60,514 nucleotides of DNA, taken from the IMG/VR virus record IMGVR_UViG_3300031951_000164, positions 1 to 60,514 of that record. One strand, 5' to 3'. This DNA comes from a virus (lineage: Duplodnaviria; Caudoviricetes). The first letter of the stretch is position 1; every line of letters begins with the position of its first letter. A model generated the notes under the pieces. The model saw nothing but the letters and a program-made list of their open reading frames with translations, made no database searches and was not told the DNA's origin. The position numbers and the translations under genes were made by a program. Below are positions 24,582-51,056 of the stretch, piece after piece.

Positions 24582-24588
24582 TATTTAG
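24582..24588 (-). promoter_or_regulatory. T4-type late promoter variant
   Basis: CTAAATA overlapping the gp41 stop, upstream of the cargo operon. Confidence 0.55.
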
Positions 24589-27408: not shown

Positions 27409-29997
27409 TTATGAAAATAAATCTTCAAGCGAACTGGATTCTTCTGCCTTCCAACCAATCGAATCCAAAACAATTTGTAGAGGGTCTAGAAACGTTTTCT
27501 CGAAGAGCATATTGTAATGCACCTTGTCTTGAATATCAAACTCTTTCGGAATATCATCATGAAACGAAAGAACATTGCTGTTGAGTTTGTTCGGTTGCTT
27601 CAAATACACGAACTTAATCTTGTCGCCATCTTCGATCTTGGGGTACTTCTTCTCCAGCTTCAGAACATCAAGCATGTGATTGTAAATCAACGCACCCTTG
27701 GTGTGGATCGGTGTTCCTAATTTGTATGGCGCCTGACGTAGTGCATTGATATCACCACGCACATCCTTGAGCTTGACTCCATATTCCTTTATACCATTCA
27801 CGCCGCGAGGAAATGCAATGTCAGACAATGGGGCGCTGTTATACTCCGAGCGGAAGTCTGATATAAACTTCCGAAGATCCAATTCGCTGCCACCAAGAAT
27901 AATCTTGAATGCCTGCTTAATCTTGTTGCGGCAGATTAATGGAGTTGAAGACTTGATTGCCTCAAGACCCATGATCTTCATCTTGGGTTCTGCGTACTCA
28001 ACTCCTTCGTTGTTGTACACGTTGATGATATATCGTTTCTTCGCAGTCCAGATTGCACGATCGCCCAACGCTTCTCGCTTCATGTCCATCGTTTGGTCAA
28101 ATGCAGAAACATATTCTGCAAGTTCAGCGTAGCACTTGCTTATATAAGGTTGTATTTTATCGTTACACGCAGCGTCCATGAACTGAATAACTTTGCGTTT
28201 GTCTGATATGTTCTTACCGAATACTTTCTTGACCAACTCATCGAAACGAATGTAAACTGAGTCAGTATCCGAGGCGATCACATAATCCACATTGGTATTA
28301 AGAAGTTTGTTGAGATAATCGTTGATGCGATTCTCGATCCAACGAATTGACAACTGACCTGACAGAGTAATTCCTTCGGCGATACGAATATCATAGAACC
28401 TGAAGAATTTATTGCCACACGCACCATAAGCTGAGTTCAAACAAACCTTCTTTGCCATCTGCAGATTCTTGTATCTTGAAACTCTGTTGACAATATCTGC
28501 AACATCTTTCATTCCTGCTTTCTTGGCAGCTTCTAGTTCTTTCTCTGCTTGAGTCATGAGATTCTTATATCGTTTACGATCAGCAAACATCTGTCGCATC
28601 AGCGTGGCAAGAAATCCTTCCTTCTCTGTGCGAAATAGCTGACCATTCGGACACAGCGTCATCTTGAGATTCTTGAGCTTGTCTGTGTTTACTTCACGCG
28701 CAAGCATAGAATCGACGTTGATATTTTGAGAAATAACGCGATGCATCTCTTCGGTATATTCTGTCGGATGAACCAATGTCTCTGGTGAGATATTGTACAT
28801 CATTATCAAACTGGGATATAGAGAAGTCAAGTCAAAGGAAGCAACCCAGTCGTGCATGCCAACCTGCACATCTTTCACATATCCACCAGCATACTGAGCT
28901 GATTTCGTATGATCGTCATTCGGCGGGATGATAATTCCCTTGCTTCGCAGGTGATTGTAGATGATAACATCCCACATAAGAACCTGAGAAAATACATCAT
29001 CGAAGTTTGTCTTTGAGTCATAAGCAAGGGTCATCGCCAACTCAATCAGCTTCATCTTCTTCTCAAGATTGAAGACAAGCTCAACGTCTTTGATGTTGTA
29101 CTCGATGAACTTTTGATAGTTTGTCTTGTACAGCTCAAGAAGAGAACCATACTCAGAGTAATCCAGCTTCTTCTCGCCGAGTTCAACGCTAGCAATGTTA
29201 TCTAGACGAAATGAATCTTGGTTTGGGTTCGGCGCATACTTTCGATACAGTTCAATGTAATCAAGAGAAACGACGCCAACGATATCGTATGTCTTGGCTT
29301 CCTTGCCCTTGAATGTAGCAGTGCGCTCATTCAAACGATTCCAAGGAGACATCCTTCTGGCAATGTCATTGCCAAGAACATTTGTTATACGATTGATCAG
29401 ATAGGGAATATCGAAGAACTTACTATTCCAACCAGTGATGATGTCAGGATGACAAGATGCCCAGACCTCAACGAATTCTTTGAGCATCGAATATTCAGAA
29501 GTGAACATTCGATAGTTGACGTCATCGCGACAGTTGTTGTATTCTTGGCACCCGAATACTTGATATGTACCATTCACGAACAACGTGATGGCAGTGATTT
29601 CCTTGTTCGCTAAATCAGGTTCTGGGAACCCCTCGTCCGACGCAACCTCAATGTCGATGTAAGCGACGCAAATTTTATCAGCCTCCCATGGAATCTCTTT
29701 GGGAAATGCTTCCGAGATAAATGCGTATGGGTATCGAGTAAATCCGTAGATCTTGAAGTTCTCGATACCGTCATACTTTTTAACGAAGTCTCTCGCTTCG
29801 GAAATTGATGTGAAGGGAAGTTCCTCGAGATACTCACCCTGAAGCGTCTTCCACTCCGTTTTCTTATTCGCCTTAGTGTAGAGTTTAGGAGAATATTGAA
29901 TTTTCTTGGCGATTCGTTTGCCATTGTGCACGCCTCTGAAAAGGATGTTATCGCCAAGAACTTCGACGTTGGTATAAAACATATCTGCTCCATTCAT
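27409..29997 (-). CDS. 43: family B DNA polymerase (T4 gp43)
   Basis: DIEV exonuclease, FDLTSLYP, KVCLNSAYG, DTDS, KKRY; C-terminal SSSLEDLFS clamp motif. Confidence 0.97.
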   Translation of the reverse strand: MNGADMFYTNVEVLGDNILFRGVHNGKRIAKKIQYSPKLYTKANKKTEWKTLQGEYLEELPFTSISEARDFVKKYDGIENFKIYGFTRYPYAFISEAFPKEIPWEADKICVAYIDIEVASDEGFPEPDLANKEITAITLFVNGTYQVFGCQEYNNCRDDVNYRMFTSEYSMLKEFVEVWASCHPDIITGWNSKFFDIPYLINRITNVLGNDIARRMSPWNRLNERTATFKGKEAKTYDIVGVVSLDYIELYRKYAPNPNQDSFRLDNIASVELGEKKLDYSEYGSLLELYKTNYQKFIEYNIKDVELVFNLEKKMKLIELAMTLAYDSKTNFDDVFSQVLMWDVIIYNHLRSKGIIIPPNDDHTKSAQYAGGYVKDVQVGMHDWVASFDLTSLYPSLIMMYNISPETLVHPTEYTEEMHRVISQNINVDSMLAREVNTDKLKNLKMTLCPNGQLFRTEKEGFLATLMRQMFADRKRYKNLMTQAEKELEAAKKAGMKDVADIVNRVSRYKNLQMAKKVCLNSAYGACGNKFFRFYDIRIAEGITLSGQLSIRWIENRINDYLNKLLNTNVDYVIASDTDSVYIRFDELVKKVFGKNISDKRKVIQFMDAACNDKIQPYISKCYAELAEYVSAFDQTMDMKREALGDRAIWTAKKRYIINVYNNEGVEYAEPKMKIMGLEAIKSSTPLICRNKIKQAFKIILGGSELDLRKFISDFRSEYNSAPLSDIAFPRGVNGIKEYGVKLKDVRGDINALRQAPYKLGTPIHTKGALIYNHMLDVLKLEKKYPKIEDGDKIKFVYLKQPNKLNSNVLSFHDDIPKEFDIQDKVHYNMLFEKTFLDPLQIVLDSIGWKAEESSSLEDLFS

Positions 29998-30035: not shown

Positions 30036-30220
30036 CGTCGTTTTTTGTTTTTGATTTCCGATGCGATTTTCTTTTTGTCAGCCAACTCGCCATTGACATA
30101 GATCTGATCGAGGATCATTCCATATCTGTTCTTACCAACAACAAGACTGTGTCCGTTGAACTCTTTGATCTTGTAGCCGTATTCTAGAAACAGATCTTTC
30201 AAATCATTAAGACAGTGCAT
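30032..30220 (-). CDS. hypothetical protein
   Basis: 62 aa, TAATG coupling. Confidence 0.6.
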   Translation of the reverse strand: MHCLNDLKDLFLEYGYKIKEFNGHSLVVGKNRYGMILDQIYVNGELADKKKIASEIKNKKRR

Positions 30221-30972
30221 TAAACCACCCAGGGAAGGTTACCACCATATCTCCGCAGCATTTCGGCGTTGCCTTGAAGGAAGAACTCCTTCTGTACAGA
30301 CATAGGGTTGTTGCCTACAGTATAGTTGACCGTATGCGCGTATGTCGGAAGGAAGTTGTTGAAGTGTTGGCGTAGATTCGCGCAAAGGACGCGATCAACT
30401 TCTGGCACTCCAGGTTCTCTCGCCTTTCGATACCAAAGTGGACTGACTGAAACAGCCACGTCTTTTCTTAGGAAGTAACAGTTGACGTCAACGAAGTAAT
30501 CTTCAGGATGAAGAACGCTGGGATATACGCCAAGAGATTCGCAGTCGTCTCGGCAGATAAAGTTCTTATCTTTGTCTTGAATGTTACGGAACGAGAATGT
30601 CCAATGCTTTCCTTGCATCATCACATTCATACAAGATTGAACGTGTTCTGGATGCAGCGTGTTATCGTCGTCAAGATACATGACGAAATCGCCGTCAGCA
30701 AGATATGTTCCTGCTCCATACATTCGATGACCATTCCACCTCTCAATACCAACGGGAGTAGGAAGATCGATGACATCTAAAGAACAATGCATCTTATGCA
30801 GATATGCATCATCAATCAACTTCATCGCCTTGTCTTTATGGGCTGGACCATCGACGAAGACAAGATGCTGAATGTTTGTGTATGTCTGATTATGTACGCT
30901 CTCAATCACATCCGTGAGTAAAGGATTCGCTGACGTTGCCGTGATGACAGTTACTAGCGGACCTTGACTCAT
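30220..30972 (-). CDS. glycosyltransferase family 2 (GT-A)
   Basis: LVTVIT..SVHNQTY..VFVDG, YLDDDN DxD motif. Confidence 0.85.
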   Translation of the reverse strand: MSQGPLVTVITATSANPLLTDVIESVHNQTYTNIQHLVFVDGPAHKDKAMKLIDDAYLHKMHCSLDVIDLPTPVGIERWNGHRMYGAGTYLADGDFVMYLDDDNTLHPEHVQSCMNVMMQGKHWTFSFRNIQDKDKNFICRDDCESLGVYPSVLHPEDYFVDVNCYFLRKDVAVSVSPLWYRKAREPGVPEVDRVLCANLRQHFNNFLPTYAHTVNYTVGNNPMSVQKEFFLQGNAEMLRRYGGNLPWVV

Positions 30973-33071: not shown

Positions 33072-33333
33072 ATTATGACCGAATCCAACCAAGATGTAAA
33101 GAAAAACAATTCCTTGCAAATCAATGACTTACACAATCCCACTGCTAAGTTCTTGATTTATAAGGAGTTTATCCAATCGGTAATTTTACGCTTTTCTGCT
33201 TGCAAGAAATCGGCGGGAAATACCCACCTCGTCTCCCACTTTTAAAGCAAATTTTTGTAAGTCATTGATTTCATTAGAGAAAGTCTTGCAGGTGAACTTC
33301 AATACCCTTCTGCTAAGTCATTGATTCATAAGG
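33072..33333 (-). repeat. promoter/IHF-site cassette, copy 2 (full)
   Basis: TTTACA-17-CATAAT (33072-33100); IHF-consensus sites at 33119, 33146, 33258, 33314; box at 33178. Confidence 0.85.
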
Positions 33334-33811
33334 ACTTTTTTTCGACGACAACCCCAGCTCGCCTCAGCAGGTCGATCCCGTCCGTTCGCCGATACTCAGC
33401 CCCATACCGGACCACCCCCACTCCAGCCTGCAGTATCGCCTTGGAGCACTCAACGCAAGGCGCATGCGTTATGTACATGGTCGCGTCAAGGCAAGAATCG
33501 TGCGAGCGCGCAACTTTTAGTAGACAATTTATTTCCGAATGAATAACGAAAGGTTTCGTGACGAGCATTTCTGGTGTTATAGTTCTACTTTCGACATCGT
33601 GGTGTTCTGGTATAATTTCCTCACACTCATTTTCAAACCCTGCTGGCATACCATTCCAACCAAAGGAAATTATATTTCCGTTTTTGACTAGCACGCTTCC
33701 GACTTGCAACCTTCGAGCATATGACATTTTCGCCACCCTCTCAGCCAAATCGAAATAGAAGTCATCATATCTTTTTCGTTTTAGTTCTTCCTTCGTACCA
33801 ACCATTATCAA
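33326..33811 (-). CDS. cd: dCMP deaminase
   Basis: MSYARRLQVG, GWNGMPAG, HSE and PCVEC Zn motifs. Confidence 0.92.
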   Translation of the reverse strand: MIMVGTKEELKRKRYDDFYFDLAERVAKMSYARRLQVGSVLVKNGNIISFGWNGMPAGFENECEEIIPEHHDVESRTITPEMLVTKPFVIHSEINCLLKVARSHDSCLDATMYITHAPCVECSKAILQAGVGVVRYGAEYRRTDGIDLLRRAGVVVEKKSL

Positions 33812-34463
33812 TTTCCTCGTCTGTTCGGATCAGTTTACTATTAGTTCCATCTGTTATCCATTTTTTCTTAACCCTTTCTATTTGTCCAGTTCGAACTAAT
33901 TCCCAATATTTGTTAGATATTTTTTTACAGTGCCCATTTTCTGCATTTATTTTTCCTTGGGATTTCCCACCCAACGTACAAGATTTCAATCTTATGGTTG
34001 AGTCGAAGAAAGAATTTTTATTTTCTCTTCTGCAAGTATCTGCGCCTTTTTTGCCATACTGGATTCTTTGTTCTTTCGTTAATTCCGATTGAACTCGTTT
34101 CATATGTCCCGATTTAGAATTTATTGATCCTTGTACTCTTCCTCCGAGAGAAGCATTTGTTTTCGCTTCTTCATCAGAAACCTCTCTTCCATAAAAAAGA
34201 GAAAGCCCAACTAATCCAGATTCCTTTCTTTTTTTATTACACGCCGTTCCTCCGAGGCTAGCTCGCAATTTAACGAATTCTTCGTCTTTGTTTTTTCCAG
34301 AAAGCATAAAGTAAGCACAAAGATCTTCGAATTTACCGAATTCCTCATATAAAGACATATGCGCCTGCGCGTGTTCTTCTACAGTGAGTTCAATTAAATT
34401 AGAGGGATCGTCTGAACCTCCCATATGTTTTGGTATGATGTGGTGTTTGTGTTTCATCGACAT
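33765..34463 (-). mobile_element. free-standing HNH homing endonuclease
   Basis: HHIIPKHMGGSDDPSNLIELTVEEHAQAH; repeated LGG..QG.IN...GH units; KWITDG..GWYEGR C-terminus; AT-rich. Confidence 0.85.
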
Positions 34464-34599: not shown

Positions 34600-35007
34600 T
34601 CAAAGGATCTCCAGCTTCCTAGTCTTACTCTCAGGAAGCACTCGGCGAAGATGAATATAAAGAATGCCATTTTCCAACTTTGTCTTATCTACTGCGACGC
34701 TGTCGGCAAGAGTGAATTTCTTGATGAACCCTCTTGATGCAAGACCGCGAAGAAGATAGTTCCTGTCTTCCTTCTCTGGTTTGTTGGCGACAATATGCAA
34801 AACATTGTCTTCTTCGAGGTTGATTTCAAGATCTTCTTTGGCGAAACCAGCGACGGCGATTTCAATAGTATAATCAACGTCAGAACTCTGGACAATATTG
34901 TACGGTGGATAACCTATAGCGGTCTTCGCCTGCACGGGATCCATATTAAAGAAGACGCGGCGAAATGAGTCTAGAGCGAGGCTGTTGAGAAAATAGTCTG
35001 TGGTCAT
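34600..35007 (-). CDS. hsp20: small heat-shock protein (Hsp20/IbpA-like)
   Basis: YPPYNI, IEIAVAGF, RGLASRGF and ENGILYI motifs; AAGGAG SD. Confidence 0.92.
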   Translation of the reverse strand: MTTDYFLNSLALDSFRRVFFNMDPVQAKTAIGYPPYNIVQSSDVDYTIEIAVAGFAKEDLEINLEEDNVLHIVANKPEKEDRNYLLRGLASRGFIKKFTLADSVAVDKTKLENGILYIHLRRVLPESKTRKLEIL

Positions 35008-35012
35008 GATGT

Positions 35013-35031
35013 TCTCCTTATATAAGCGAGA
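35013..35031 (-). promoter_or_regulatory. ROSE-like RNA thermometer hairpin sequestering the hsp20 SD
   Basis: UCUCGCUU-AUAU-AAGGAGA: UCGCU motif with bulged G pairing over the SD. Confidence 0.55.
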
Positions 35032-35108
35032 TTGTTGAAACCGACCCCAATCGGGCATCGGTGGCGAGGGAAGCCCCCCACTTCATCAGCACGCTCTAAT
35101 GAGCCGTG

Positions 35109-35522
35109 CTACTTTTTTCTTCCTATGCTGTATTTAGTCATCAGGTTGTAGTTGCCCTTATCGCGGTGACTGACAACCTTGATCTGGGACATTGGCGCTT
35201 TTGGATCAGCAGCTGCCTCTTTGTTCACGATAGCAACCAATCCCCATTCTTCTAGCAGATTGGCAATCGTGTTACGACGCGCAATGTCGGACTCGTTCAG
35301 GCTAGAAGGTTTGCCGTCCAGCTTGAACATCTCCTTGAAATGTACAATATAGTATTTGCCTCTCTTATGCAGTATATGACAAGACTGATAGAGAGTGGGC
35401 TTCTCGTTGCCGTCAGCAGTCTGCGGCTTCGACGATACGCCGATACGAGAAAGAGTTTCGGCTACTTTAAGAAAATCATCACTCTGTTGTAGTGTGACCT
35501 CGACCAATGATTCTAAATCCAT
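35109..35522 (-). CDS. regA: translational repressor RegA
   Basis: DDFLKVAETLSRIG, LYQSCHILHKRGKYYIVHFKE and RRNTIA. Confidence 0.95.
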   Translation of the reverse strand: MDLESLVEVTLQQSDDFLKVAETLSRIGVSSKPQTADGNEKPTLYQSCHILHKRGKYYIVHFKEMFKLDGKPSSLNESDIARRNTIANLLEEWGLVAIVNKEAAADPKAPMSQIKVVSHRDKGNYNLMTKYSIGRKK

Positions 35523-35935: not shown

Positions 35936-36159
35936 CGTATAATCTCCACTTCACTTTCCGTAACAACAGCAACTCTTGCGCCACAGGGAAGCAGAGTCTT
36001 CTCGTTGCCAGAATACATCACATGACTGGGACCATGGATCTTTACTTCGTGGCAGTAGGTGTTCTTCTTACCCTGCTTTACGCTGAGAACAGGCTCATCT
36101 CTGTTATGTAGTTTATTGCCGCGAATCTTTTGTTGATTAACGTGAATGTATGTTTTCAT
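35932..36159 (-). CDS. conserved hypothetical protein
   Basis: IHVNQQKI..NTYCHEVKIHGPS..LPCGARV motif. Confidence 0.75.
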   Translation of the reverse strand: MKTYIHVNQQKIRGNKLHNRDEPVLSVKQGKKNTYCHEVKIHGPSHVMYSGNEKTLLPCGARVAVVTESEVEIIR

Positions 36160-37094
36160 TTGAACGAACACTCACACATAAGCTCGGTTACACATGCCAT
36201 CAGGTTGATCTCAGGATCAGCAACGAACGCTGCTTGATACTGATACTTCCCAAGGATAACAACGGCAATAGGAATCGTTGGCGGCTCAAGACACTCAGAC
36301 AGTCGATCATACAGCTGACGGAAGATTACGTTGGAATCGTTGTCATGATTCATCGCCACCCACTTTCGCGCTTCGTTGAAGTTCTTGCCTTTCAATGCAG
36401 CCATCAAGTCGGCAAACTTCACATCAGCATTATTGGCAAGAATACCAGAGTCAATCCTACCACGAACCGAATACCTCTGCAACTCATTCAGAGTTCTACG
36501 ATTATCTGGGAAGAACTTTGTGATGACCTCGGCAACAACCTTGGGGTCATACTCAATCTTCTCGCGATCAAGAATCTGCTGGCAACGCTTCATGAACGCA
36601 GATGCCATCTTCGCCTTGTCGCCGTTCTTGAGTTTGAAATCAATAACAGCACACCGAGAATGCAACGGTTCAATGATACGGTTTTTGTAGTTACAAGTAA
36701 AGATGAACGAACAGTTTGTAGAGAACTCTTCAATCACTCCACGGAACGCTGGCTGAGTGGAGTTGGGGTTTAGATAGTCAGCCTCATCGATAATGATAAC
36801 CTTGCGACCACCATAAAGTGAAACTGACGAGGCGAATCCTTTCACCTTTGTTCGCAGCGTATCAATACCAGTCTCGTCTGAACCATTGATGAGAATATAG
36901 TCTAGACCAATCTCATCACACAACGCTCGGGCAACGGTGGTTTTGCCAACTCCTGCTCCACCAGCAAACAACATGTTCGGAACTGTCTTGTCGTCAACAT
37001 ACTTTTGAAAGTCTGCTTTCAACGATTCTGGAAGAATGCATTCCTGAATGGTGTGAGGACGATACCTCTCCACCCACAATATTTCATCACTCAT
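36156..37094 (-). CDS. 44: clamp-loader large subunit (gp44)
   Basis: LWVERYRP, GAGVGKTT, IDEAD and SRC motifs. Confidence 0.95.
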   Translation of the reverse strand: MSDEILWVERYRPHTIQECILPESLKADFQKYVDDKTVPNMLFAGGAGVGKTTVARALCDEIGLDYILINGSDETGIDTLRTKVKGFASSVSLYGGRKVIIIDEADYLNPNSTQPAFRGVIEEFSTNCSFIFTCNYKNRIIEPLHSRCAVIDFKLKNGDKAKMASAFMKRCQQILDREKIEYDPKVVAEVITKFFPDNRRTLNELQRYSVRGRIDSGILANNADVKFADLMAALKGKNFNEARKWVAMNHDNDSNVIFRQLYDRLSECLEPPTIPIAVVILGKYQYQAAFVADPEINLMACVTELMCECSFK

Positions 37095-37111
37095 AATATA
37101 GAACTCCAAGT

Positions 37112-37369
37112 TTACATGCTAGGGAACACTTCAGAATATGTTTCTTGAAACTCCTCCTCTTCTGCTACCATTTGCTGGTATGCTTGTTTGTGGTATGCTT
37201 TGGCAAGACGCCGAGCGATCTTCGGATGCATCTCGAACTCTTCCTTGAGGTCTTGGTAGATTTCCTTCATATGATCGCGCTCGGCTTCGATGCGCGTCAT
37301 CGAGTTGCTAAGTTCAATGAACTTGTTCTTGAGATCTTTCTTTTGTTCGGAAGTCAGTGTCGTCAACAT
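37112..37369 (-). CDS. dsbA: dsDNA-binding protein DsbA-like
   Basis: ELSNSMTRIEAERD..RRLAKAYHKQ motif. Confidence 0.75.
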   Translation of the reverse strand: MLTTLTSEQKKDLKNKFIELSNSMTRIEAERDHMKEIYQDLKEEFEMHPKIARRLAKAYHKQAYQQMVAEEEEFQETYSEVFPSM

Positions 37370-37377
37370 GTCACACC

Positions 37378-38037
37378 TCAAAACTTGGTTGCATCTTTTT
37401 CGACGGCAACGAAGTAATGCACTTTCTTCGTTGTGTTCTCGAACTTCGACACTTTGGAGCAGAGCTTCACTTTGTAGTCACCGCCGAGGAGCTTGAGATT
37501 TTCGACCTTGATGGCAGTTTGAAACTCAACGTCAGTTTCGCCAACAGTGGTGGCTGCATCATCAACGATCTCGCCTTTCACATCCATGGCTGCAATTTCA
37601 ATCTTGCTACCGACGCTGCGAATCACAATGTTCGGAGTCTTGAGAACCGAAGACACAGAGAAGATCCAGTCCAGCTTGTCTGAAGGAAGATCGAACTCAA
37701 CATCATAGTTCGATACATTGATGCTCTTGTCTGGCGGAGAAAGAATGAGATTAGAAGGCGAATAACGCTGGCGAACTTTTCCTTGCGGATGGCTGATGGT
37801 CACATACTCCCCACCAAGTTCAATCTGGTTGTCCTTCGACATCGAAAGAAGACCCAGGAACTTGTGAAGATCATAGATGCCAAACTCTCGGTCGAATGAT
37901 TCAGAGATGGTCGCTTCCGCCATCAATGCCCTACTAGAGCTGATGGTGCGAAGTTGACTTCCCTCCTTAATGACTAGACCTTGGTTGATCGAAGCATAGT
38001 TCTTCAGGATCTCAACCGTTTCTTTAGACAATTGCAT
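37378..38037 (-). CDS. 45: sliding clamp (gp45)
   Basis: MQLSKETVEILKNYASINQG, FGIYDL and YFVAVE. Confidence 0.93.
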   Translation of the reverse strand: MQLSKETVEILKNYASINQGLVIKEGSQLRTISSSRALMAEATISESFDREFGIYDLHKFLGLLSMSKDNQIELGGEYVTISHPQGKVRQRYSPSNLILSPPDKSINVSNYDVEFDLPSDKLDWIFSVSSVLKTPNIVIRSVGSKIEIAAMDVKGEIVDDAATTVGETDVEFQTAIKVENLKLLGGDYKVKLCSKVSKFENTTKKVHYFVAVEKDATKF

Positions 38038-38070
38038 AATTTACACTCCATTCAGTAGAAACACAAGGAT

Positions 38071-38099
38071 ATTATAAACCATTGTACCGTTGAAGTAAA
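38071..38099 (-). promoter_or_regulatory. sigma70-type promoter for the gp45 operon
   Basis: TTTACT-17-TATAAT. Confidence 0.7.
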
Positions 38100-38115
38100 A
38101 TGGTTTCACCATGCC

Positions 38116-38211
38116 TCAGTCTTCGTTGAGGCGACAAGAATCAACAGCATCAAGGATGCCAGTGAAAAATATAAAAGAAGCGATAATCGCGCAGTACACT
38201 GTTAAAAACAT
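38116..38211 (-). CDS. small hydrophobic peptide (31 aa)
   Basis: MFLTVYCAIIASFIFFTGILDAVDSCRLNED with GAGG SD. Confidence 0.4.
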   Translation of the reverse strand: MFLTVYCAIIASFIFFTGILDAVDSCRLNED

Positions 38212-38218
38212 AAGACCC

Positions 38219-39550
38219 TCAGTTGAATAAATCTTCTAGACTTGATGATACGGAGTAGGCTCCGGGATGATATTTAGTGACTATATCTCTTCCCAGGCGA
38301 GCTTCTAGGTAATTATACCATTCTTTGTCTTCCCACATATTAGCTGAAACCCCATTCCATAAAGGTTTCCAGAGAGGGTGTTCTTGATTCAATCTGCGGC
38401 TCTCTACAAAGTTGAATCGGCAGTCTTCGTACTCTTTAGAACCAAGCTCGAGCATATTCTCTCTAAAATAGCAAACAAGAGAGATACGTTCGGCGCTCGG
38501 GTTCTTGAGTTTGATAGGAGTATTACCATGAATCACTTCATGGTTGTTGATGAGGAGAAGATCTCCTGGTCTAACATCGATCGCAATACGATATTCTGGA
38601 GCAACAAGGTATGCGCCCTCATACTCTCCACCATTAGAAACAACCAGAAGATTAGACAGACCATCGGAAAAGTCTCCTGCGTCAAGATGCGCTGCTGTTC
38701 TGAAATTCTTGTTCACAGTAATAGTCGTGAAGACGGTTTCTGGAACAAGGAACTGTGGATCAAGTTTATCTGCTGCCTTTCGTTGGTTGCTCCAACGCCA
38801 AGGAACAAGGTCTCGGAATCCTTCGTTCAGCCGCTGAAGGAAAGGAAATGACTTTTGAAAGAGATCAAAATAATCACGAGTGTAGGAAGTGGCTCGACCA
38901 TACGGAATGCGAGGATAACGATCATACCACCCAGCGATACCAGAAAAGACTGGCATGGCATACGTTGTAGCAGAGATCATTTCTTTGCTAACGACCCATG
39001 CTTCTGCTTGAGCCTGATCTTTGTTTTTCTTTACAGCATCAACCCATTTGTTGAACTCAAATCCATCTTCACACCCAGTTAGAGTTTCACCAACAGCCTT
39101 GAGTTTGCGCGCCAACCAAACCATACCTCGAGCAGATTCCAATGGCATCTTTCTGTAATGCGCACGAATGTCTTCGATTGGATCAGAACCGAATAGGTTG
39201 TCTTCAGGTTTCATCATATACTGGAGAATGTCCAGATGCTCATCCGAAACCCACTCGCGATTCTGTAACTTTCCTCCCTTCGGTCCAGCAGCCATTCCTC
39301 TGTTCTGACTTTCCCTAGCAGCTAGACGCAACCCTTCATATGCATCATCTTGATGTTGTTTCGTGAAGAAGTTCTTACGAAACTTGAAAATGACTTTGCG
39401 TTCGTCTGCCGTTGAATCAGAATCAAACCCAGAAGGCATGTATGCATCACAGTCTTCTGTGATCAACGTATCATAATTCCTTTCGTCAAGGAACTGACCG
39501 ATGAGGTGTGTTGAATCTATTTTTTTATCCGCAACAATAACTCGCACCAT
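38219..39550 (-). CDS. TET/JBP-family 2-oxoglutarate/Fe(II) dioxygenase
   Basis: SGIAGWYDR, TVFTTITVNKNFRTAAHLDAGD (HxD), IHGNT (H), ERISLVCYFRE (R). Confidence 0.85.
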   Translation of the reverse strand: MVRVIVADKKIDSTHLIGQFLDERNYDTLITEDCDAYMPSGFDSDSTADERKVIFKFRKNFFTKQHQDDAYEGLRLAARESQNRGMAAGPKGGKLQNREWVSDEHLDILQYMMKPEDNLFGSDPIEDIRAHYRKMPLESARGMVWLARKLKAVGETLTGCEDGFEFNKWVDAVKKNKDQAQAEAWVVSKEMISATTYAMPVFSGIAGWYDRYPRIPYGRATSYTRDYFDLFQKSFPFLQRLNEGFRDLVPWRWSNQRKAADKLDPQFLVPETVFTTITVNKNFRTAAHLDAGDFSDGLSNLLVVSNGGEYEGAYLVAPEYRIAIDVRPGDLLLINNHEVIHGNTPIKLKNPSAERISLVCYFRENMLELGSKEYEDCRFNFVESRRLNQEHPLWKPLWNGVSANMWEDKEWYNYLEARLGRDIVTKYHPGAYSVSSSLEDLFN

Positions 39551-39590
39551 TTCACTAACTCCTAAGAGAACACATTATTACTTATGCAGT

Positions 39591-39619
39591 ATTGTACGTT
39601 ATTGCGAGATGAATGTAAA
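39591..39619 (-). promoter_or_regulatory. sigma70-type promoter for the TET/JBP gene
   Basis: TTTACA-17-TACAAT. Confidence 0.6.
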
Positions 39620-39623
39620 TATT

Positions 39624-40283
39624 CTATGGTATTACTGTCGCCCAAGCATCAGCCCAAGACTTGGTTTCTAAAGCTCTAACGAAAGAATAGACTTGAAGAC
39701 GAAGTTCTTCTAAGGAAGATTCGTTGTTAAACGTCTCATCAACTTCAGTTCCGATCCAAGAAAATTCACTTGCATGTACATTAGGATACATCAGAGGCAT
39801 GAGTGCTTTATCTGAATCGCCTTTGTTTTGCGCCAAGGCAACATCATACCATTCTGGTTCTGGTCCTCTCTTCACTCGAATGAGCTTTCCGCCAACAGAC
39901 TTGATCATAGAAATTTCGTTGGGGAAACGAACGTCTGTTATCACATACTTCTTATCGCGATGTAAACTACGAAGAAGAGAATATACCCAAATGTTTTCGC
40001 CAAGAACATTTCTTCCTGCTTCAGTCCCAAACCGTTGGAGAATCAATCTTGGCGTGACATTATACCCAAGATGCCTCGACCAATATGCATCAGGTCGCTC
40101 TCGCCACTCTCTGGACTCTTTAGTCGATCCCTCAAGAAGCTCTCTGTCCCAACTGAATATGATGGAAACTGCATCTTTCAATGTTGAAGCGAAGCTGGCT
40201 TTTTCATAGCCAGCCTCGATCAACATACTACCGACAGTATCTTTACCGCTTCCGGCAAAACCCAAAACACCGACGATATTCAT
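39624..40283 (-). CDS. deoxynucleoside monophosphate kinase (T4 gp1-like)
   Basis: GFAGSGKDT, TPRLILQRFGTE, ITDVRFPNE and HASE motifs. Confidence 0.9.
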   Translation of the reverse strand: MNIVGVLGFAGSGKDTVGSMLIEAGYEKASFASTLKDAVSIIFSWDRELLEGSTKESREWRERPDAYWSRHLGYNVTPRLILQRFGTEAGRNVLGENIWVYSLLRSLHRDKKYVITDVRFPNEISMIKSVGGKLIRVKRGPEPEWYDVALAQNKGDSDKALMPLMYPNVHASEFSWIGTEVDETFNNESSLEELRLQVYSFVRALETKSWADAWATVIP

Positions 40284-40301
40284 GATATAGCCTCCAACGA
40301 C

Positions 40302-41099
40302 TTAGAGAGCGCCAACGTATGCAGCAACTGCCCCCATGTCACCATGGAATGCATACGTTCCGATATGATGCGTTTTCATCCACGGGCAAAGCCAGATCTG
40401 ACCGCCCATGTTTCGCCACCACTGACAGAACATATAGTCTTCTGACAGATAGCGATCGGACTTACCATGATCAATAGCAGTGTCGAAGAACGCATGAATG
40501 TACCGCGAACCGTCGAAGTTTGCTTGACCGACATGGTCTGGCTTGTACCGAAGCTCAGGATATGCTTTCTCAAACTTCTCGAACACTTCGCGCTTGACCA
40601 TCATGAATCCAGTGCCGATTTCAAGAACTTCCAGCGGCTCACCTACGCTGAACTGACCAGTACCAGCAACAGCATTGAACACATAATCGCCAGTTACTTT
40701 CTCAACTTCGCCAGGTTCAATATTAGGATTGCGCTTGATCGCTTCAACCACTGAACCCCACTTGATAGATTTCTTAGGATACGGACCTCCGTTAATCTCT
40801 TTGTCCATAGCAAGAAGAGCGACAACGTCTCGAGGATCAAAGTGGATGTCAGAATCAATAAAAAGGAGATGGCTAAAACCAGAACGAAGGAACTCATCAA
40901 CAAGGTAGTTTCTAGCTCGTGTAATAAGACTTTCGTTAAAGATGAATGAGAATCTGATTTCAATTCCATATTGGGCACACACCGATTGGAGATCGAGGCA
41001 GGATTTGATGTACATCCCGTGAGCCATACCGCCATACATCGGGGTTGCTACGAAAAGCCTCTTCTTCTGCAGATCTTCTACTTTAATTTCTAGTTGCAT
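40302..41099 (-). CDS. phage GT-A-fold glycosyltransferase-like protein
   Basis: VATPMYGG, SLITRARN, LFIDSDI (DxD), GTGFM and YLSEDYMFC. Confidence 0.75.
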   Translation of the reverse strand: MQLEIKVEDLQKKRLFVATPMYGGMAHGMYIKSCLDLQSVCAQYGIEIRFSFIFNESLITRARNYLVDEFLRSGFSHLLFIDSDIHFDPRDVVALLAMDKEINGGPYPKKSIKWGSVVEAIKRNPNIEPGEVEKVTGDYVFNAVAGTGQFSVGEPLEVLEIGTGFMMVKREVFEKFEKAYPELRYKPDHVGQANFDGSRYIHAFFDTAIDHGKSDRYLSEDYMFCQWWRNMGGQIWLCPWMKTHHIGTYAFHGDMGAVAAYVGAL

Positions 41100-41582: not shown

Positions 41583-42752
41583 TTATTCTTGTTCGGCAGA
41601 AGCAGGCTCAGCATCACCGATAGAGACGTTGGCGTTTTCGTCCAGCTTCTCATACAGATCAAAGAACGCAGCCTTGGTATCCGAATCGAAACGATTCAGC
41701 GCCAGAGTGATTGCTTTCTTCTTGTTCTTGAAGATAGCATATGCTTCGGCGATACGAACCAGACGACGAGTCGAAACAATCTCATCGACCGCACCCTCTT
41801 CGAACGAACGACGAATCACCTCAGCCCAGTTTACCAGCTTGGAAGCGAAGTCGTCATCCTTGATTCCGAGGGAGTTGAAGTTGTTGAGCAGAATGCTCTC
41901 TTCTACTTTTGCCTTGGGATACTCTTGCTCTACCGTGATAGCGAAACGGTCAAGGAATGCTTCGTTCAGAACGTTGGCGCCAATGAACCGACCGTCATCG
42001 CTCCCCTTGCCTTTCGTGTTAGCAGTAGCCATGATATTGAAACCACGAGCGGGATGAATCACCTCACCAGTCTTCTTGTCGAAATACGGTTTGCCTTCGA
42101 GGATAGGCTGAAGGCACAGAAGACGCTCAGAACCATAATCAGTTTCGTCCATCAGAAGTACTGCACCACGACGCATTGCTACAAGCACCGGACCTTCGCG
42201 ACGGACCGTGTTACCGTCAATGAGTTCATAAGAACCGATAAGATCGGTTTCGTCGGTCTCCTTGGTAATGTTAACACGAATCAGTTCGCGACCGAGGTTG
42301 GCGCAGACTTGTTCGATCATCAGCGTCTTGCCGTTGCCAGACAGACCCGTAACATACACAGGATAGAAGACTTTGGAAGAAATGATCTTCTTGAGGTCAG
42401 AGTAGAAACCGAAAGGAACATAGATCGGATTCTTATCGGGAACGAACGAATCGGTAACAGTAGCAGCGCGGCGAGTGGACATTTGAATCACAGGAGCAGC
42501 CATGGCAACTTCAGATACAGCCTCAGGCTCAGGTTGAGTTTGATGGGAAACGACAGGAGCAGAACCAATATAGTACATTCCGCGATCGGCGCGGTTCTCG
42601 GGCTTGAACAAAAAGCCTGGATTCGGGTAACCATTCTTGCTGGCAAATTTGGCAATATCGCATCCGCGAAGAGCAGCCGTATTCGGGAAAGCATCACGCA
42701 GTCGCTCAAGAAACATTTCTTTGGCGCCGTCGTTAGAGAAGGTCTTCATCAT
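41583..42752 (-). CDS. MoxR/CobS-like AAA+ ATPase
   Basis: GLSGNGKT, LMDE, ATANTKGKGSDDGRFIGANVLNEAFLDRF and STRRL. Confidence 0.9.
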   Translation of the reverse strand: MMKTFSNDGAKEMFLERLRDAFPNTAALRGCDIAKFASKNGYPNPGFLFKPENRADRGMYYIGSAPVVSHQTQPEPEAVSEVAMAAPVIQMSTRRAATVTDSFVPDKNPIYVPFGFYSDLKKIISSKVFYPVYVTGLSGNGKTLMIEQVCANLGRELIRVNITKETDETDLIGSYELIDGNTVRREGPVLVAMRRGAVLLMDETDYGSERLLCLQPILEGKPYFDKKTGEVIHPARGFNIMATANTKGKGSDDGRFIGANVLNEAFLDRFAITVEQEYPKAKVEESILLNNFNSLGIKDDDFASKLVNWAEVIRRSFEEGAVDEIVSTRRLVRIAEAYAIFKNKKKAITLALNRFDSDTKAAFFDLYEKLDENANVSIGDAEPASAEQE

Positions 42753-42793
42753 GTAGTCTCCGTAGAGGTAAGTTTCAATCAATCAACACAATC

Positions 42794-46890: not shown

Positions 46891-47480
46891 TGCGCTTTTT
46901 CGAACCGTTCCAGCTTGGCTGCGTCTCTTGCCCGCCTCTTATGGATCTTGACCCGATCCTTGGCTCGCTGTAGCTTGATGGCAGGAACTCGCTTCGTGAA
47001 GCAAGTGCCGTTGAGGTGATCCATCTCATGTTGAATGATTCTTGCCGTGAACCCGTCGAAGGTTTCTTCCCTTTCGATGTTTCGCTCGTCGCGCCAACGA
47101 ACTTTTATTCTGCTTGCTCGCTTTACTCGCAAAAAGAGGTTTGGATATGTGAGGCAACCTTCTTGAATGTCATCGTTCTCGCCAGTAGTCTCAACGATCT
47201 CTGGATTGAAGAAGCAAAAGAATGTCTTGCCATGACCCATGACGAACACTCGATAAGGTAGACCGACTTGGTTAGCAGAAAGCCCCAGCCCTCCCTTCTC
47301 TGCCATAGTGTGGAGAAGAGAAGTCGCAAGTTGCGATGGGTGCATCGGCGGTCTATTGAAATCGAACTCTTGTGTTCTTTCCCAGAGAACCTTCGCGTGT
47401 GGAGGAACAAGATCATAGATCATATAGTCCATCATGTTGCCATCAACGTATTTTACAATTCGCTTACCCTTCGGTGTCAT
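46881..47480 (-). CDS. def: peptide deformylase
   Basis: GLGLSANQ, EGCL and QHEMDHLNG motifs. Confidence 0.93.
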   Translation of the reverse strand: MTPKGKRIVKYVDGNMMDYMIYDLVPPHAKVLWERTQEFDFNRPPMHPSQLATSLLHTMAEKGGLGLSANQVGLPYRVFVMGHGKTFFCFFNPEIVETTGENDDIQEGCLTYPNLFLRVKRASRIKVRWRDERNIEREETFDGFTARIIQHEMDHLNGTCFTKRVPAIKLQRAKDRVKIHKRRARDAAKLERFEKAQKA

Positions 47481-49204
47481 TATGCTATCTCCATTTGTGA
47501 GAAGTTCTTGACTTTCTCGAACTTCATTACTGTACCAAACTTATCTATCAATGCGTCAGTCTTGTGACTGATAACGAATATGTTAGAGTCTTCGCTGAGC
47601 TGATCAATCAGCTTCATCAACTCATCTGTTCCCGAAGAGTCAATCGCCCCATCGAAGATCTCATCCATGATCAACAGGTTTGTGTTGATCGAGTTTTTCA
47701 TGCGCGCAATTGCTCTGAACGTGAACAGAAGGCTCAGGTCAATTCTCATGCGCTCGCCTTCAGAGAAGTTGTCGTATGAGAAATCATCACGATGCCTAGA
47801 CTTAATCGTTTCCTTGAACTCTTCGTCCATCTCAAAGTTCACGAAGAAATCTAGCGAAGCAAGATACTTATTCACCAGCTTGTTAATGATCGGCAGATAC
47901 TGCTTAACAATACGAGCTTTGATGCCTGAGTCTTTCAACAGAATAGCCGCTGCTTCTGCGTATGCTTTCTCGTTAGAGATACGCTCACGTGTAGCAATCA
48001 GCTCCTGATACTTCGCATACAGCTCTCGCGCCAGCTTTTCTAGGTTGCCATCCATCGGCTTCTTGTTCTTGAGTTCTTCGATCTCTTTGTTCTGCTTCTC
48101 TACGTTCTTTCGCAGCTGCTTGATCGTAGCACCATATCTAGCAACCTCAGCCTGATGTTCATTGACCTTTGTAATTACATCTTGAATTTCTTTGTTTCTC
48201 GCAACCATTTTATTGAGCTGATCGTTGAGATCAACCAGACCATTGTCTATCTCTTCAACTTTCTTTTTTCGTCCAGCTGTGATGTTCTGCTTGAATGTTT
48301 GCGTTATCTCTTGAGTGCAAGTGGGACATTCGTCATGTTGCTCATAGAAGTCCAGGTCCTTCTGTATCTTCCTGCGCGTTTCGTTTATCTTGACGCTCAG
48401 TTTATTGAGAGAGCCAATCTTATCGACAACTGAATCCTTGTCGCGAATGCCATTCAGCAGCTGATCAGTATGCCGCTGTACCAACTCACACTTATGTTCA
48501 TGTTCTTCTATGTGTCGAAGGTTCTCGTCGCGGTCTTCAGTTTTCTTTTCAATCTCAGCATCAGCATTCTTCTTAGCATCTTCTATGAACTTCTTCTGTA
48601 GTTGAAGTTGCTGACTGATGCCTTCTAGAGCTGTCTTGTTTTCTACGCTTTCCAACTTGATCTGCGATAAGTTATCTTTGACGACTGAGTTCATCGAAGA
48701 AAAGATCTGTATGTCGAGGAGGTCTTCGATAATCGCTCTACGATCAGAAGCTGACAACTTCATGAATGGAACGAAAGAAGAACTGCCTAGTATGACGATC
48801 TGAGTGAACGCCTTGTAGTTGAACTTCAGAATAGAAGTTTCAAGATAACTCTGGTAGTCTTTCGTTGCTGCGTCTTGATCGATCAACTCGCCATCAAGAT
48901 ACATCTCAAACACGTTCGGTTTGATTCCGCGTCGTATCTTGTACTTCTTAGTTTGAATGGAGAACTCAAGTTCAACAAGGCAATCTTTCCCGTTGATTGA
49001 GTTGATTAGAAGAGGCTTGTTGATGTTACGAAAAGACTTGCCGAACAGAGAGAACGTCAGCGCATCAAGAACCGTTGATTTGCCTGAACCGTTCTTACCA
49101 ACAATCAGCGCGCTCTTGTGCTTGTTGAGTTGGATCTGATTCCAGCTGTTGCCAGTGGAAAGAAAGTTTTTCCACCGAACTGTCTCGAAAACAATTTGAG
49201 CCAT
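47480..49204 (-). CDS. 46: SbcC/Rad50-like recombination ATPase (gp46)
   Basis: GKNGSGKST, CPTC hook, FSEGE and MDE motifs. Confidence 0.95.
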   Translation of the reverse strand: MAQIVFETVRWKNFLSTGNSWNQIQLNKHKSALIVGKNGSGKSTVLDALTFSLFGKSFRNINKPLLINSINGKDCLVELEFSIQTKKYKIRRGIKPNVFEMYLDGELIDQDAATKDYQSYLETSILKFNYKAFTQIVILGSSSFVPFMKLSASDRRAIIEDLLDIQIFSSMNSVVKDNLSQIKLESVENKTALEGISQQLQLQKKFIEDAKKNADAEIEKKTEDRDENLRHIEEHEHKCELVQRHTDQLLNGIRDKDSVVDKIGSLNKLSVKINETRRKIQKDLDFYEQHDECPTCTQEITQTFKQNITAGRKKKVEEIDNGLVDLNDQLNKMVARNKEIQDVITKVNEHQAEVARYGATIKQLRKNVEKQNKEIEELKNKKPMDGNLEKLARELYAKYQELIATRERISNEKAYAEAAAILLKDSGIKARIVKQYLPIINKLVNKYLASLDFFVNFEMDEEFKETIKSRHRDDFSYDNFSEGERMRIDLSLLFTFRAIARMKNSINTNLLIMDEIFDGAIDSSGTDELMKLIDQLSEDSNIFVISHKTDALIDKFGTVMKFEKVKNFSQMEIA

Positions 49205-49210
49205 GTTACC

Positions 49211-50272
49211 TCATTGTCTAACGTGTGCTTCAACATACACTTCGCGCATGTATGTCTTGAGCTTTTCTTTGTCGAGATCAATTTGCAAACTATCAACATA
49301 TTTAGAAAGCGTGGTCATAGTATCGTCAGCCTGATCAATCACATCTTCGTCTGAGATCTGCGTGTAATCAGTGAAGTCTTCAACCACAGAAACATCATAT
49401 GGTTGACTCTTATACAATTTATCCATGAACACATCAAACAGATAAGGGTCAATCTTTTTAGCGACAATCACTTTCACTATCGTGTTAGTGTACTTGCTAA
49501 AGTTCTTGCTCTTAACTGTATCGACAGTTTCATGGTCGTCATTGTAAACAACCTTATGGAACATTTTAAATGGATTTTCGATGAAAGTCAACTCTCTTGT
49601 TTCTGTATCGAAGATATGGAATCCACGTTTGTCGTTGTAGTCTGACCAAGTCATTTCCCCTGGCGTTCCAACATAGTGTATGTTTCCAGAACTAGACTTG
49701 TGATGAAAGTGCCCAGAAAGAACAACATCATACTTGGCTAGAACGCTTCTGTCCATTCCCTCATGACAAATGTTTCCGCGATCCATCTCGAAACCAGCAA
49801 GCTCAAAGTGCCCCATGCAAATTTGAGAATTGCTGTTGAGAATAAACGCCATAACTTGTTGTTCGTTCTCTTCGCAAATCCATGGAATCAAGTCAACATC
49901 AACACCATCAAAAGTCATTGTCTCTGGATATGTGATGACATGAATGTTTTGATATTCACGAAGCGTCAGCTCGATGGAGTTTACCTTCAACGTGTTCTTA
50001 AAGAAGATGTCATGGTTGCCAACTAACGTTGTAAGTTGGATGTTATTAAACTCAAGCATATCAAAGAAGTATTGCTTGGACAGATACAGAGTATTGTAGT
50101 TAACATACTTCCGTCGATCGAACAAATCACCGAGCTGAATGATTTTTCTTATTCCCATTTCACGAAGAGTCGGTAATAATGTTTCCTGATAGAACTTCTT
50201 GTAGTAATTGTGGAAATGAAGCGAATCATTCCTCATGCCAAAATGTGTGTCTCCAACAATTGCTATCTTCAT
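49211..50272 (-). CDS. 47: SbcD/Mre11-like nuclease (gp47)
   Basis: GDTHFG, GDLFDRR, GNHD and SGHFH motifs. Confidence 0.95.
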   Translation of the reverse strand: MKIAIVGDTHFGMRNDSLHFHNYYKKFYQETLLPTLREMGIRKIIQLGDLFDRRKYVNYNTLYLSKQYFFDMLEFNNIQLTTLVGNHDIFFKNTLKVNSIELTLREYQNIHVITYPETMTFDGVDVDLIPWICEENEQQVMAFILNSNSQICMGHFELAGFEMDRGNICHEGMDRSVLAKYDVVLSGHFHHKSSSGNIHYVGTPGEMTWSDYNDKRGFHIFDTETRELTFIENPFKMFHKVVYNDDHETVDTVKSKNFSKYTNTIVKVIVAKKIDPYLFDVFMDKLYKSQPYDVSVVEDFTDYTQISDEDVIDQADDTMTTLSKYVDSLQIDLDKEKLKTYMREVYVEAHVRQ

Positions 50273-50470
50273 TTACGCCTCATTCGTTGTAGGAAGAGCT
50301 TTCCCATCAAAGTCTACAGTAGAATGTAGAAGTTGGTTGTCGAGGCGGAATCCTCCAATATTGTGATTTCTTACGAGATATTTTTTTCGTACAATATTCT
50401 CATCGACATACTCCACCAACACCACGCTGTTTGTTACTTTATCCCAAGCGTAATCTCCAACCTTAAACAT
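50273..50470 (-). CDS. small SH3-like hypothetical protein
   Basis: MFKVGD start, GGAGGAG SD. Confidence 0.55.
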   Translation of the reverse strand: MFKVGDYAWDKVTNSVVLVEYVDENIVRKKYLVRNHNIGGFRLDNQLLHSTVDFDGKALPTTNEA

Positions 50471-51056
50471 CTGTTTCTCCTCCAACGTCAAAAGCTACAG
50501 GATCTTCCTCGTCGAACAATAATTCTAACTTAGTTTTCTTCGCTTTACTACTCTTCAATTTGTTTTTTCTATTCGTTTCTTCATAGTTATCTATGAACTC
50601 TGAAATGTTCTCATACATCTCAAACTGTGCAGAAACCATTCCATTTTCTTCAAGATCGCTCTTTTCGTTGTCGTCTAGAACTCCGAACTGTTCATAAGAC
50701 TTATATTTTACATAGAGCTGTTTCTTTTCTTTTTGAATTCGACGAAGAAACGCATAATAGATGATCTGAGTAAAGTATGCAAACGGATTGCTTGATTTGT
50801 CTGGATCGAAGTTATGAAAGTACATAATGCAGTTTTCGATAGCATCGCCAATCATCTCATCCTTAAATGTATAAGCATAGAAGTTTGGTTTGTTAGCAAG
50901 GTTCTTTGCGATCAACATCAAACACGTTGCCATGTAATCTGGGATCTTTGGAATCGGTTTGTTCTCTGCTCGACATTCAGCGCAGATAGCCCTATAGTTT
51001 TTGATAGCCTGCAGGAACTCGGCGTTATCTACATAATGATTTTTAGCAACTTTCAT
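50463..51056 (-). CDS. 55: late sigma factor (gp55)
   Basis: HYVDNAEF, KPNFYAYT..EMIGDAIENC and NPFAYFTQIIYYAFLRRIQKEKKQ. Confidence 0.95.
   Translation of the reverse strand: MKVAKNHYVDNAEFLQAIKNYRAICAECRAENKPIPKIPDYMATCLMLIAKNLANKPNFYAYTFKDEMIGDAIENCIMYFHNFDPDKSSNPFAYFTQIIYYAFLRRIQKEKKQLYVKYKSYEQFGVLDDNEKSDLEENGMVSAQFEMYENISEFIDNYEETNRKNKLKSSKAKKTKLELLFDEEDPVAFDVGGETDV

Follow-up and report, generated by a model that had tools for sequence, protein, structure and literature searches.

The TET/JBP-family dioxygenase encoded by a T4-like phage ends in the same short peptide as the DNA polymerase of that phage, and we propose that this peptide probably binds the gp45 sliding clamp and so tethers the oxidase to it, an arrangement that in related phages would extend to the enzymes acting next. 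The phage DNA is IMG/VR virus record IMGVR_UViG_3300031951_000164, taken whole (60.5 kb; estimated completeness 36%) and called the window below; all of its assigned genes lie on the minus strand. The elements that bear on the proposal are these:

38219-39550, minus strand: TET/JBP-family (5mYOX) Fe(II)/2-oxoglutarate DNA dioxygenase (TET below), 443 residues, Pfam PF12851
38222..38248, minus strand: TET C-terminal tail SSSLEDLFN, proposed gp45-binding peptide; stop codon 38219-38221
38249..38269, minus strand: variable TET linker PGAYSVS, joining the tail to the last helix of the fold (...KYHP)
27409-29997, minus strand: gp43 family-B DNA polymerase, 862 residues, DNA_pol_B E 2.7e-29 and DNA_pol_B_exo1 E 9.3e-23
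27412..27438, minus strand: gp43 C-terminal tail SSSLEDLFS, corresponding in position to ASLDFLFG of T4 gp43
37378-38037, minus strand: gp45 sliding clamp, 219 residues, proposed docking partner, Pfam gp45-slide_C E 1.1e-7
36156-37109, minus strand: gp44 clamp-loader large subunit, Pfam Gp44_lid E 3.6e-18 plus AAA
35558-35935, minus strand: gp62-type clamp-loader small subunit, Pfam Phage_clamp_A E 1.1e-11
50463-51056, minus strand: gp55 late sigma factor, phrog_234 E 1.1e-57
50514..50531, minus strand: KLELLF inside gp55, a related, looser epitope

The C-terminus of TET reads ...GAYSVSSSLEDLFN and that of gp43 ...WKAEESSSLEDLFS. The two tails share eight consecutive identical residues at equal distance from the stop codon, so that the likeness pointed out in an earlier, sequence-only reading of the window is confirmed from both translations. 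The codons are TCA TCA AGT CTA GAA GAT TTA TTC in TET and TCC AGT TCG CTT GAA GAT TTA TTT in gp43: the two agree at 15 of 24 bases, two of the serines have a TCN codon in one gene and an AGY codon in the other, and an 11-base stretch, GAAGATTTATT, is common to both. Conservation at the protein level, which the same reading had claimed from the differing codons, is borne out by these figures and by three related loci (L007, L008 and L022; 77-85% identity) in which linker residues vary and the motif is kept via synonymous changes. Among the 79 minus-strand open reading frames (ORFs) of the window, only TET and gp43 carry such C-termini. Comparison of the C-terminal 12-mers of these ORFs (3081 pairs) gave 8 identities in one run for TET and gp43 and 5 for the runners-up, and 500 draws of random internal 12-mers reached a maximum of 7 identities (in 4 of the 500) and never 8. 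We conclude that the shared tail is not due to chance, since no other pair of the 79 genes shows such a likeness and the motif is retained by 119 of 120 TET homologues.

Tail statistics were collected from the 120 best TET homologues (E below 1e-167). All except one (P0019, which has no tail) close with [ST]-L-[ED]-x-[FL]-F, preceded by a variable linker, with the hydrophobic pair terminal. With the final phenylalanine of the motif as position 0, position -5 is S or T in 116 of the 119, position -4 is L in 116, position -3 is E or D in 118, position -2 is variable, position -1 is F in 106, L in 12 and M in 1, and position 0 is F throughout (119/119); the residue after the motif is G, A, N, V or none. 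Between the HP and the leucine of the motif lies a linker of 6-8 residues, whose positional entropy is high. In each of 80 further IMG/VR loci TET closes with a hydrophobic pair resembling that of the motif, and the stricter pattern holds for 78 of these tails. When the wider family was sampled by 150 cluster representatives, 20 showed the pattern, nearly all of them in the closest clade of 430-470 residues, and four further tail variants were recognised by eye; the short phage TETs of about 300 residues in this set lack a clamp-type tail. These alignments support the view that the TET tail is a short linear motif conserved by selection on the protein. Many of the short, tail-less TET-like representatives (about 300 residues; P0240-P0363) have a recurrent ending of their own, ...E-E-L-x-R-A-K-x-R-x-x-G-D-P-L-[YW], in some cases ...PLF, and this ...GDPL[YW] ending may be another conserved C-terminal docking motif.

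The protein that carries the tail has the features expected of a DNA base oxidase. TET residues 222-364 match Pfam family Tet_JBP (PF12851) with 82 bits against a cut-off of 34.9 (E 3.7e-23), and the protein matches phrog_24024 with an E of 1.7e-163. The catalytic core spans approximately residues 200-430, and the roughly 190 residues on its N-terminal side belong to no assigned family. H288, D290, H341 and R355 are invariant in TET alignments of 49 and of 25 sequences; from family knowledge, we take the first three to be the H-x-D...H iron-binding triad and R355 to be the arginine that binds 2-oxoglutarate. An AlphaFold2 model with an overall predicted local distance difference test (pLDDT) score of 82.5 was matched by Foldseek to CcTet (E 3e-10), CMD1, TET2 and NgTET1 (root-mean-square deviation 3.8 A over 172 columns), and the modelled core is a double-stranded beta-helix as in solved TET enzymes. 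The pLDDT is 90 at residues 421-430, 62 at 431-440 and 46 at 441-443; because it falls over residues 431-443, the tail looks like a flexible extension past the fold. TET is thus, as judged by family and model, an active-looking DNA base oxidase whose fold ends at about ...KYHP.

We compared the tail with known clamp-binding peptides. In the T4 record NC_000866, gp43 ends in ASLDFLFG*, gp55 in SLDFLYEAND* and gp33 in TLDFLL*, and the window tails SLEDLFN (TET) and SLEDLFS (gp43) align position by position with SLDFLFG, SLDFLY and TLDFLL. The part of PMC2988020 drawn on here describes the hydrophobic-acidic C-termini of T4 gp43, gp55 and gp33 as interchangeable gp45 ligands and reports that the RB69 clamp was crystallised with an 11-mer from the polymerase; the statement in the sequence-only reading that these three proteins bind gp45 by SLDFL-type C-termini stands on that source and on the tails in the T4 record. 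Five relatives of the window polymerase (89-94% identity) all end in S[SN]SLEDLFS, and of 66 polymerase ends from related phages 52 have an FF, LF or FL pair, the other 14, unassigned by the classifier, being mostly of FW type (e.g. TLEDFWK). A gp45 family profile built from 62 homologues matched the RB69 clamp (1b77/1b8h; 7.4e-41) and the T4 clamp (1czd; 2.7e-36). Like the T4 epitopes, the TET tail is a hydrophobic-acidic peptide at or near the C-terminus, behind a variable linker, in a phage that encodes a gp45-type clamp and its loader; it differs from them in that its carrier is a DNA base-modifying enzyme rather than a polymerase or transcription factor, and in that binding is here a prediction. 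The KLELLF of gp55, which had been put forward as a related peptide, is present but lies 18 residues before the C-terminus, with an acidic stretch after it; in all 7 genomes examined, gp55 has a segment of this kind ([LV][ED]x[FLW][FLVIM] plus acidic residues).

Eukaryotic DNA-modifying enzymes, e.g. DNMT1, are tethered to a PCNA-like ring by the PIP box, Q-x-x-[LIVM]-x-x-[FY]-[FY]. The window TET tail, S-S-S-L-E-D-L-F, is not a canonical PIP box, having no Q and having L-F instead of two aromatics; 39 of the 119 tailed homologues have Q at position -7 (Q-x-S-L-E-x-F-F), and 106 have F-F. The systems also differ in that the clamp here is the phage gp45 trimer, and in that the enzyme is an oxidase that would make a protective modification rather than a maintenance methylase. 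The bacterial beta-clamp-binding motif has the consensus Q-L-[SD]-L-F, and was rejected by inspection as an account of the TET tail on the basis of spacing (L-x-x-L-F versus L-x-L-F). Two other replication proteins have conserved endings. The acidic C-terminal regions of gp32 (DLP6, Cr30, C48C1 and the genomes G022, G023 and G031) contain D-D-[LM]-[AS]-[FY]-F-[EK]-K-[LI], for which T4 has DLDDLLNDL; this segment superficially resembles the clamp tail but sits 6-8 residues from the C-terminus. RNase H of Cr30, DLP6, G022, G023 and T4 ends in ...[IL]x[DEN][DE]F (...SINEF in T4; ...IGDF, ...IEDF, ...LEDF and ...INEF in the relatives), which is a conserved C-terminal signature of another kind.

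When six complete genomes (DLP6, C48C1, Cr30, G022, G023 and G031) and the window were scanned in all six frames, the tail proved to be nearly confined to the polymerase, TET and other DNA-modifying enzymes. Tail-bearing ORFs in the six genomes were as follows:

DLP6: polymerase; TET; TAGT glycosyltransferase ending LSDLSSFFN (PF20691 E 9.9e-10)
C48C1: polymerase; TET; Dam methylase ending STLDAFFG (PF02086 E 1.4e-23); one ORF of 63 residues
Cr30: polymerase; TAGT-like protein ending ISDLSKLF (PF20691 E 8.5e-4, below cut-off; phrog_842 E 4.7e-8); one ORF of 102 residues
G022: polymerase; TET; tail-tube protein ending GSLKNFFG
G023: polymerase; TET
G031: polymerase; TET; GT-B glycosyltransferase of the gene that directly follows TET, ending in STLEDLFG exactly as TET does; one ORF of 117 residues

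The C48C1 gene for a Dam-type N6-adenine methylase lies directly after the polymerase gene (33480-34364 of the record; L042:14480-15364), and its product is, from its ending, a candidate clamp-tethered methylase. In loci L010 and L011 the GT-B protein encoded beside TET ends in SDLESFFG. A 259-residue protein whose gene overlaps the TET stop codon in two further loci (L023:11296-12075 and L024:5134-5913) ends in EEKSTLDAFF; it had no Pfam or PHROG match, and may be an unrecognised DNA-modifying enzyme flagged by its tail. A tail-bearing gene follows TET directly in 20 of the 80 IMG/VR loci, 15 of these genes being GT-B-like (about 443 residues) and 5 TAGT (about 266 residues); four of the 20 were confirmed with Pfam and the others assigned by length and a common N-terminus. 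DNA-acting enzymes that carry the polymerase-type tail therefore represent four unrelated folds. When TAGT relatives that might carry a T4-type tail were sought in T2 and T6, only 7 records came back, none of them from T-even phages.

All seven tail-bearing genomes (7/7) encode gp45. The TET homologues of S-CBWM1, HTVC112P and P12024L, phages in which we found no gp45 match, have no tail (the three endings are ...GNTNWHGK, ...NRIKHAR and ...NTGYLTL), and S-CBWM1 has no gp43 match either. Melnitz-3 encodes gp45, and its polymerase ends in TTLEDFFG. The tail thus appears to track gp45-encoding phages, an association in small numbers, uncorrected for phylogeny. Melnitz-3 also encodes a short TET-like protein (L185:952-1938) beside an HhaI-type C5 methylase; this protein ends in GNLNDFLGE, a looser form of the motif, and the methylase has no tail.

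We propose the following mechanism. The gp44/62 loader would place gp45 at the primer-template junctions of replicating phage DNA, and the TET tail would take a free protomer site on gp45, or a clamp left on finished DNA. TET would thereby be held on, and slide along, newly made phage duplex, where it would oxidise 5-methylpyrimidines, most likely thymine to 5-hydroxymethyluracil (5hmU). Next-acting glycosyltransferases with the same tail would, in related phages, use the same clamp platform. The expected outcome would be fast modification confined to phage DNA despite post-replicative chemistry. We infer the binding to gp45 and its site, the substrate, the benefit, the coupling to replication and the selectivity for phage DNA. 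More tentatively, across this large environmental clade of T4-like phages the gp45 ring may be a toolbelt for the whole hypermodification line, with TET, TAGT or GT-B and some Dam enzymes taking turns at or behind the fork. If so, post-replicative hypermodification would be effectively co-replicative and confined to phage DNA, which would explain why phages can afford such pathways, and the tail would be a sequence marker for new DNA-modifying enzymes in T4-like genomes, such as the 259-residue protein described above.

A precedent exists in T4. An interaction of the T4 alpha-glucosyltransferase with gp45 was reportedly described by Sommer et al. in 2004. Binding of this enzyme to gp45 was confirmed by pull-down, according to the portion of PMC13216743 that we cite. 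The likeness is that of a DNA-modifying enzyme of a T4-type phage proposed to work with replication through clamp binding; the difference is that the alpha-glucosyltransferase ends in ...FKEQFDIITK and has no polymerase-type tail (nor has the beta-glucosyltransferase), whereas the tail described here is canonical and is carried by enzymes that include the first of the pathway, the oxidase.

The polymerase tails of the same records bear on the proposal too. In all 24 records that hold both genes (24/24) the polymerase has the motif, and in 22 of them TET has its strict form, the variants being those of Cr30 and L113. Besides that of the window, the pairs include the following, and fourteen further TET/polymerase pairs complete the set of 24:

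DLP6: TET ATLGDFFV; polymerase ATLDSFFA
C48C1: TET ISLEEFFV; polymerase ATLEDFFG
Cr30: TET QTGATLF, outside the motif; polymerase ADLSSLFD
Six IMG/VR contigs: TET SSLEEFF, NSLEGFF or NSLEEFFG; polymerase SSLEDFF(G) or TSLE[DS]FFG

Several observations weigh against a clamp tether, the Cr30 TET tail among them. When the 24 pairs were classed by the residue at position -1, 20 were FF/FF, the window and Cr30 were LF/LF, and two were mismatched: G031 (TET STLEDLFG, polymerase ETLDCFFS) and L113 (TET STLDAFL, polymerase SSLEDFFA). Covariation of TET and polymerase is accordingly weak (Fisher p 0.022 with Cr30 and 0.13 without its degenerate tail, relatedness uncorrected), and the covariation of TET and gp43 tails across phages that had been suggested as a check did not emerge cleanly. 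We do not count covariation as support, because the variation is too small (20/24 FF/FF) and two pairs are mismatched. Agreement at position -1 between TET and the neighbouring glycosyltransferase, seen in 15 of 19 loci, reflects co-inheritance as much as co-evolution, because the genes are adjacent and the contigs related. The position of TET just upstream of gp45, noted in the sequence-only reading, holds in the window, where the TET stop codon is 181 bases upstream of the gp45 start, and in L022, but the distance is 2.3-3.5 kb in L007, L008 and DLP6 and the order is reversed in Cr30; we therefore rejected adjacency to gp45 as evidence. The window's own glycosyltransferase-like genes encode no tail, as judged by comparison of C-termini, and neither of the two genes just upstream of TET (39624-41099), one of them the dNMP kinase gene, encodes one. 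The tail pattern alone is not specific, since it also fits the G022 structural protein (a match that we take as chance), three small ORFs in the genomes and a few more in the contigs. Finally, the authors of PMC13216743, in the portion cited above, did not regard gp45 binding by the T4 alpha-glucosyltransferase as what chiefly sets modification levels and the alpha/beta ratio of glucosylation, and for this reason the tether may matter less than we propose. The interpretation as a clamp tether is supported in part: it keeps the support of a conserved motif that is of the polymerase kind, aligns with the T4 tails, recurs on other enzymes and is missing from TET homologues of three phages with no gp45 match, and loses that of covariation and of gene order.

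Other explanations of the tail were considered. It might bind gp45 for another purpose: sliding on any clamp-loaded DNA such as nicks or recombination intermediates, timing through competition with gp55 and gp33, or a higher local concentration of the enzyme that alters final modification little. In T4, gp45 acts in late transcription as well, and nicks are sites at which it is loaded (PMC2988020, in part), and the modest role of gp45 binding in alpha-glucosyltransferase function (PMC13216743, in part) would be consistent with such a purpose. We nonetheless consider it unlikely, because the presence of the tail in 119 of 120 homologues and on downstream glycosyltransferases points to a strong selective advantage connected with the modification pathway. 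It is similarly improbable that the tail docks on another replisome hub, i.e. gp32, the helicase loader, the clamp loader or the host beta clamp. Acidic-hydrophobic C-terminal peptides serve several replisome hubs, and gp32 of this clade has DD[LM][AS][FY]F near its C-terminus, so similar peptides do circulate in the replisome. However, the polymerase tail corresponds in position to the tail of T4 gp43, a gp45 ligand; the spacing L-x-x-[FL]-F is, by inspection, that of the T4 tails and PIP boxes and not the L-x-L-F of the beta-clamp motif; and the presence of the tail follows gp45-encoding phages.

Convergence of the TET tail on the polymerase tail is a good deal less probable than either of these. 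Truncation of the C-terminal extension of 5mYOX176 cut activity strongly, even in a ParB-independent enzyme (PMC13229309, in part), so an extension of this kind could serve the oxidase itself; against this, the same peptide occurs on unrelated folds (family-B polymerase, GT-A-like TAGT, GT-B and Dam), and in TET a variable linker precedes it and model confidence over it is low. Chance, or a recent DNA copy between the TET and gp43 3' ends, is hardly credible despite the identical 11 bases of GAAGATTTATT, given that only 15 of 24 bases agree with serine codon-family switches (on which codon differences we rejected recent copying), that relatives sharing only 45-60% identity retain the motif in both gene families, and that random draws never reached 8 identities.

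The likely substrate was approached through the gene content of relatives. Cytosine-C5 methylase (PF00145) was absent from all five records searched (0/5), three of them complete genomes, and the ParB_N domain was likewise absent from five records including the window and three complete relatives (0/5); control genomes were positive in both searches. Phage 5mYOXs without a neighbouring C5 methylase are predicted to be thymine dioxygenases in the part of PMC13229309 used here. Thymine is the likelier substrate of TET because none of the three complete relatives has a cytosine-C5 methylase, and we favour, on gene content, a route from thymine to 5hmU followed by glycosylation, a pre-replicative source of 5-methylcytosine also being possible. 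Note that the window encodes ThyX and a dCMP deaminase. The ParB-dependent phage thymine dioxygenases of PMC13229309 (again in part) resemble the system proposed here in being 5-methylpyrimidine dioxygenases that rely on a partner that may hold them on DNA; they differ in the partner, which here would be the replication clamp, reached via a terminal peptide, in phages whose records gave no ParB_N match. The "sliding clamp" of that paper is ParB.

The clamp-client principle is already known, as is one phage precedent, the T4 alpha-glucosyltransferase. What is new, to our searches, is a polymerase-type tail common to a whole hypermodification pathway. A literature search, whose scope excluded subscription journals and preprint supplements, brought up no account of a clamp-binding tail on a TET, TAGT or Dam enzyme of a phage, and papers on phage TETs and glycosyltransferases name clamp genes, in the portions considered, merely as neighbours (PMC8256090; bioRxiv 2023.12.21.572611). 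The rationale for post-replicative hypermodification has been termed a mystery (PMC13229309, in part). Phage TETs act after DNA synthesis, so quick and complete protection that spares host DNA needs explaining, and for that protection a concrete, testable mechanism is suggested by the polymerase-type tails of the oxidase and of the glycosyltransferases that work with it. Such a mechanism would also extend the list of gp45 clients beyond the polymerase and late-transcription factors, provide a parallel to PCNA-tethered DNA methylation in eukaryotes, and make it easy to recognise DNA-acting enzymes by sequence in the thousands of T4-like genomes from uncultured phages.

The remaining assigned genes of the window are those of a T4-like phage:

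59645-60493, minus strand: portal
56735-57385, minus strand: prohead protease
55565-56686, minus strand: scaffold
54171-55550, minus strand: major capsid protein
52943-53398, minus strand: UvsY
51480-52997, minus strand: UvsW-like helicase
49211-50272, minus strand: gp47
47480-49204, minus strand: gp46
41583-42782, minus strand: CobS-like ATPase
40302-41099, minus strand: glycosyltransferase-like protein, just upstream of TET; context pair matched phrog_139 and phrog_1574
39624-40283, minus strand: dNMP kinase, just upstream of TET; Pfam DNMK E 3.6e-8
37112-37381, minus strand: DsbA-like protein
35109-35522, minus strand: RegA
34600-35058, minus strand: Hsp20
33326-33811, minus strand: dCMP deaminase
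30220-30972, minus strand: GT2 glycosyltransferase
26333-27397, minus strand: UvsX
24585-26021, minus strand: gp41-like helicase
7869-8564, minus strand: ThyX
5618-7471, minus strand: class II ribonucleotide reductase

A promoter and terminator scan of positions 37900-39700 gave a result no better than shuffled sequence. An HNH endonuclease gene (33765-34463, minus strand) overlaps the start of the dCMP deaminase gene by 47 bases and is likely a mobile homing-endonuclease insertion. A 750-residue protein (18772-21024, minus strand) has a C-terminal ferritin-like domain (PF00210 E 7.5e-20, residues 611-745), which is unusual for a T4-like replication or structural region; its N-terminal 600 residues are unassigned. 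Lastly, an FkbM-family methyltransferase is encoded at 1943-2545 (minus strand; PF05050 E 3e-15), and in Pelagibacter phage HTVC112P (L187:2060-2758) an FkbM-annotated methyltransferase gene lies directly 3' of TET-like and ParB-like genes; the two cases hint that FkbM methyltransferases are recurrently linked to TET pathways.

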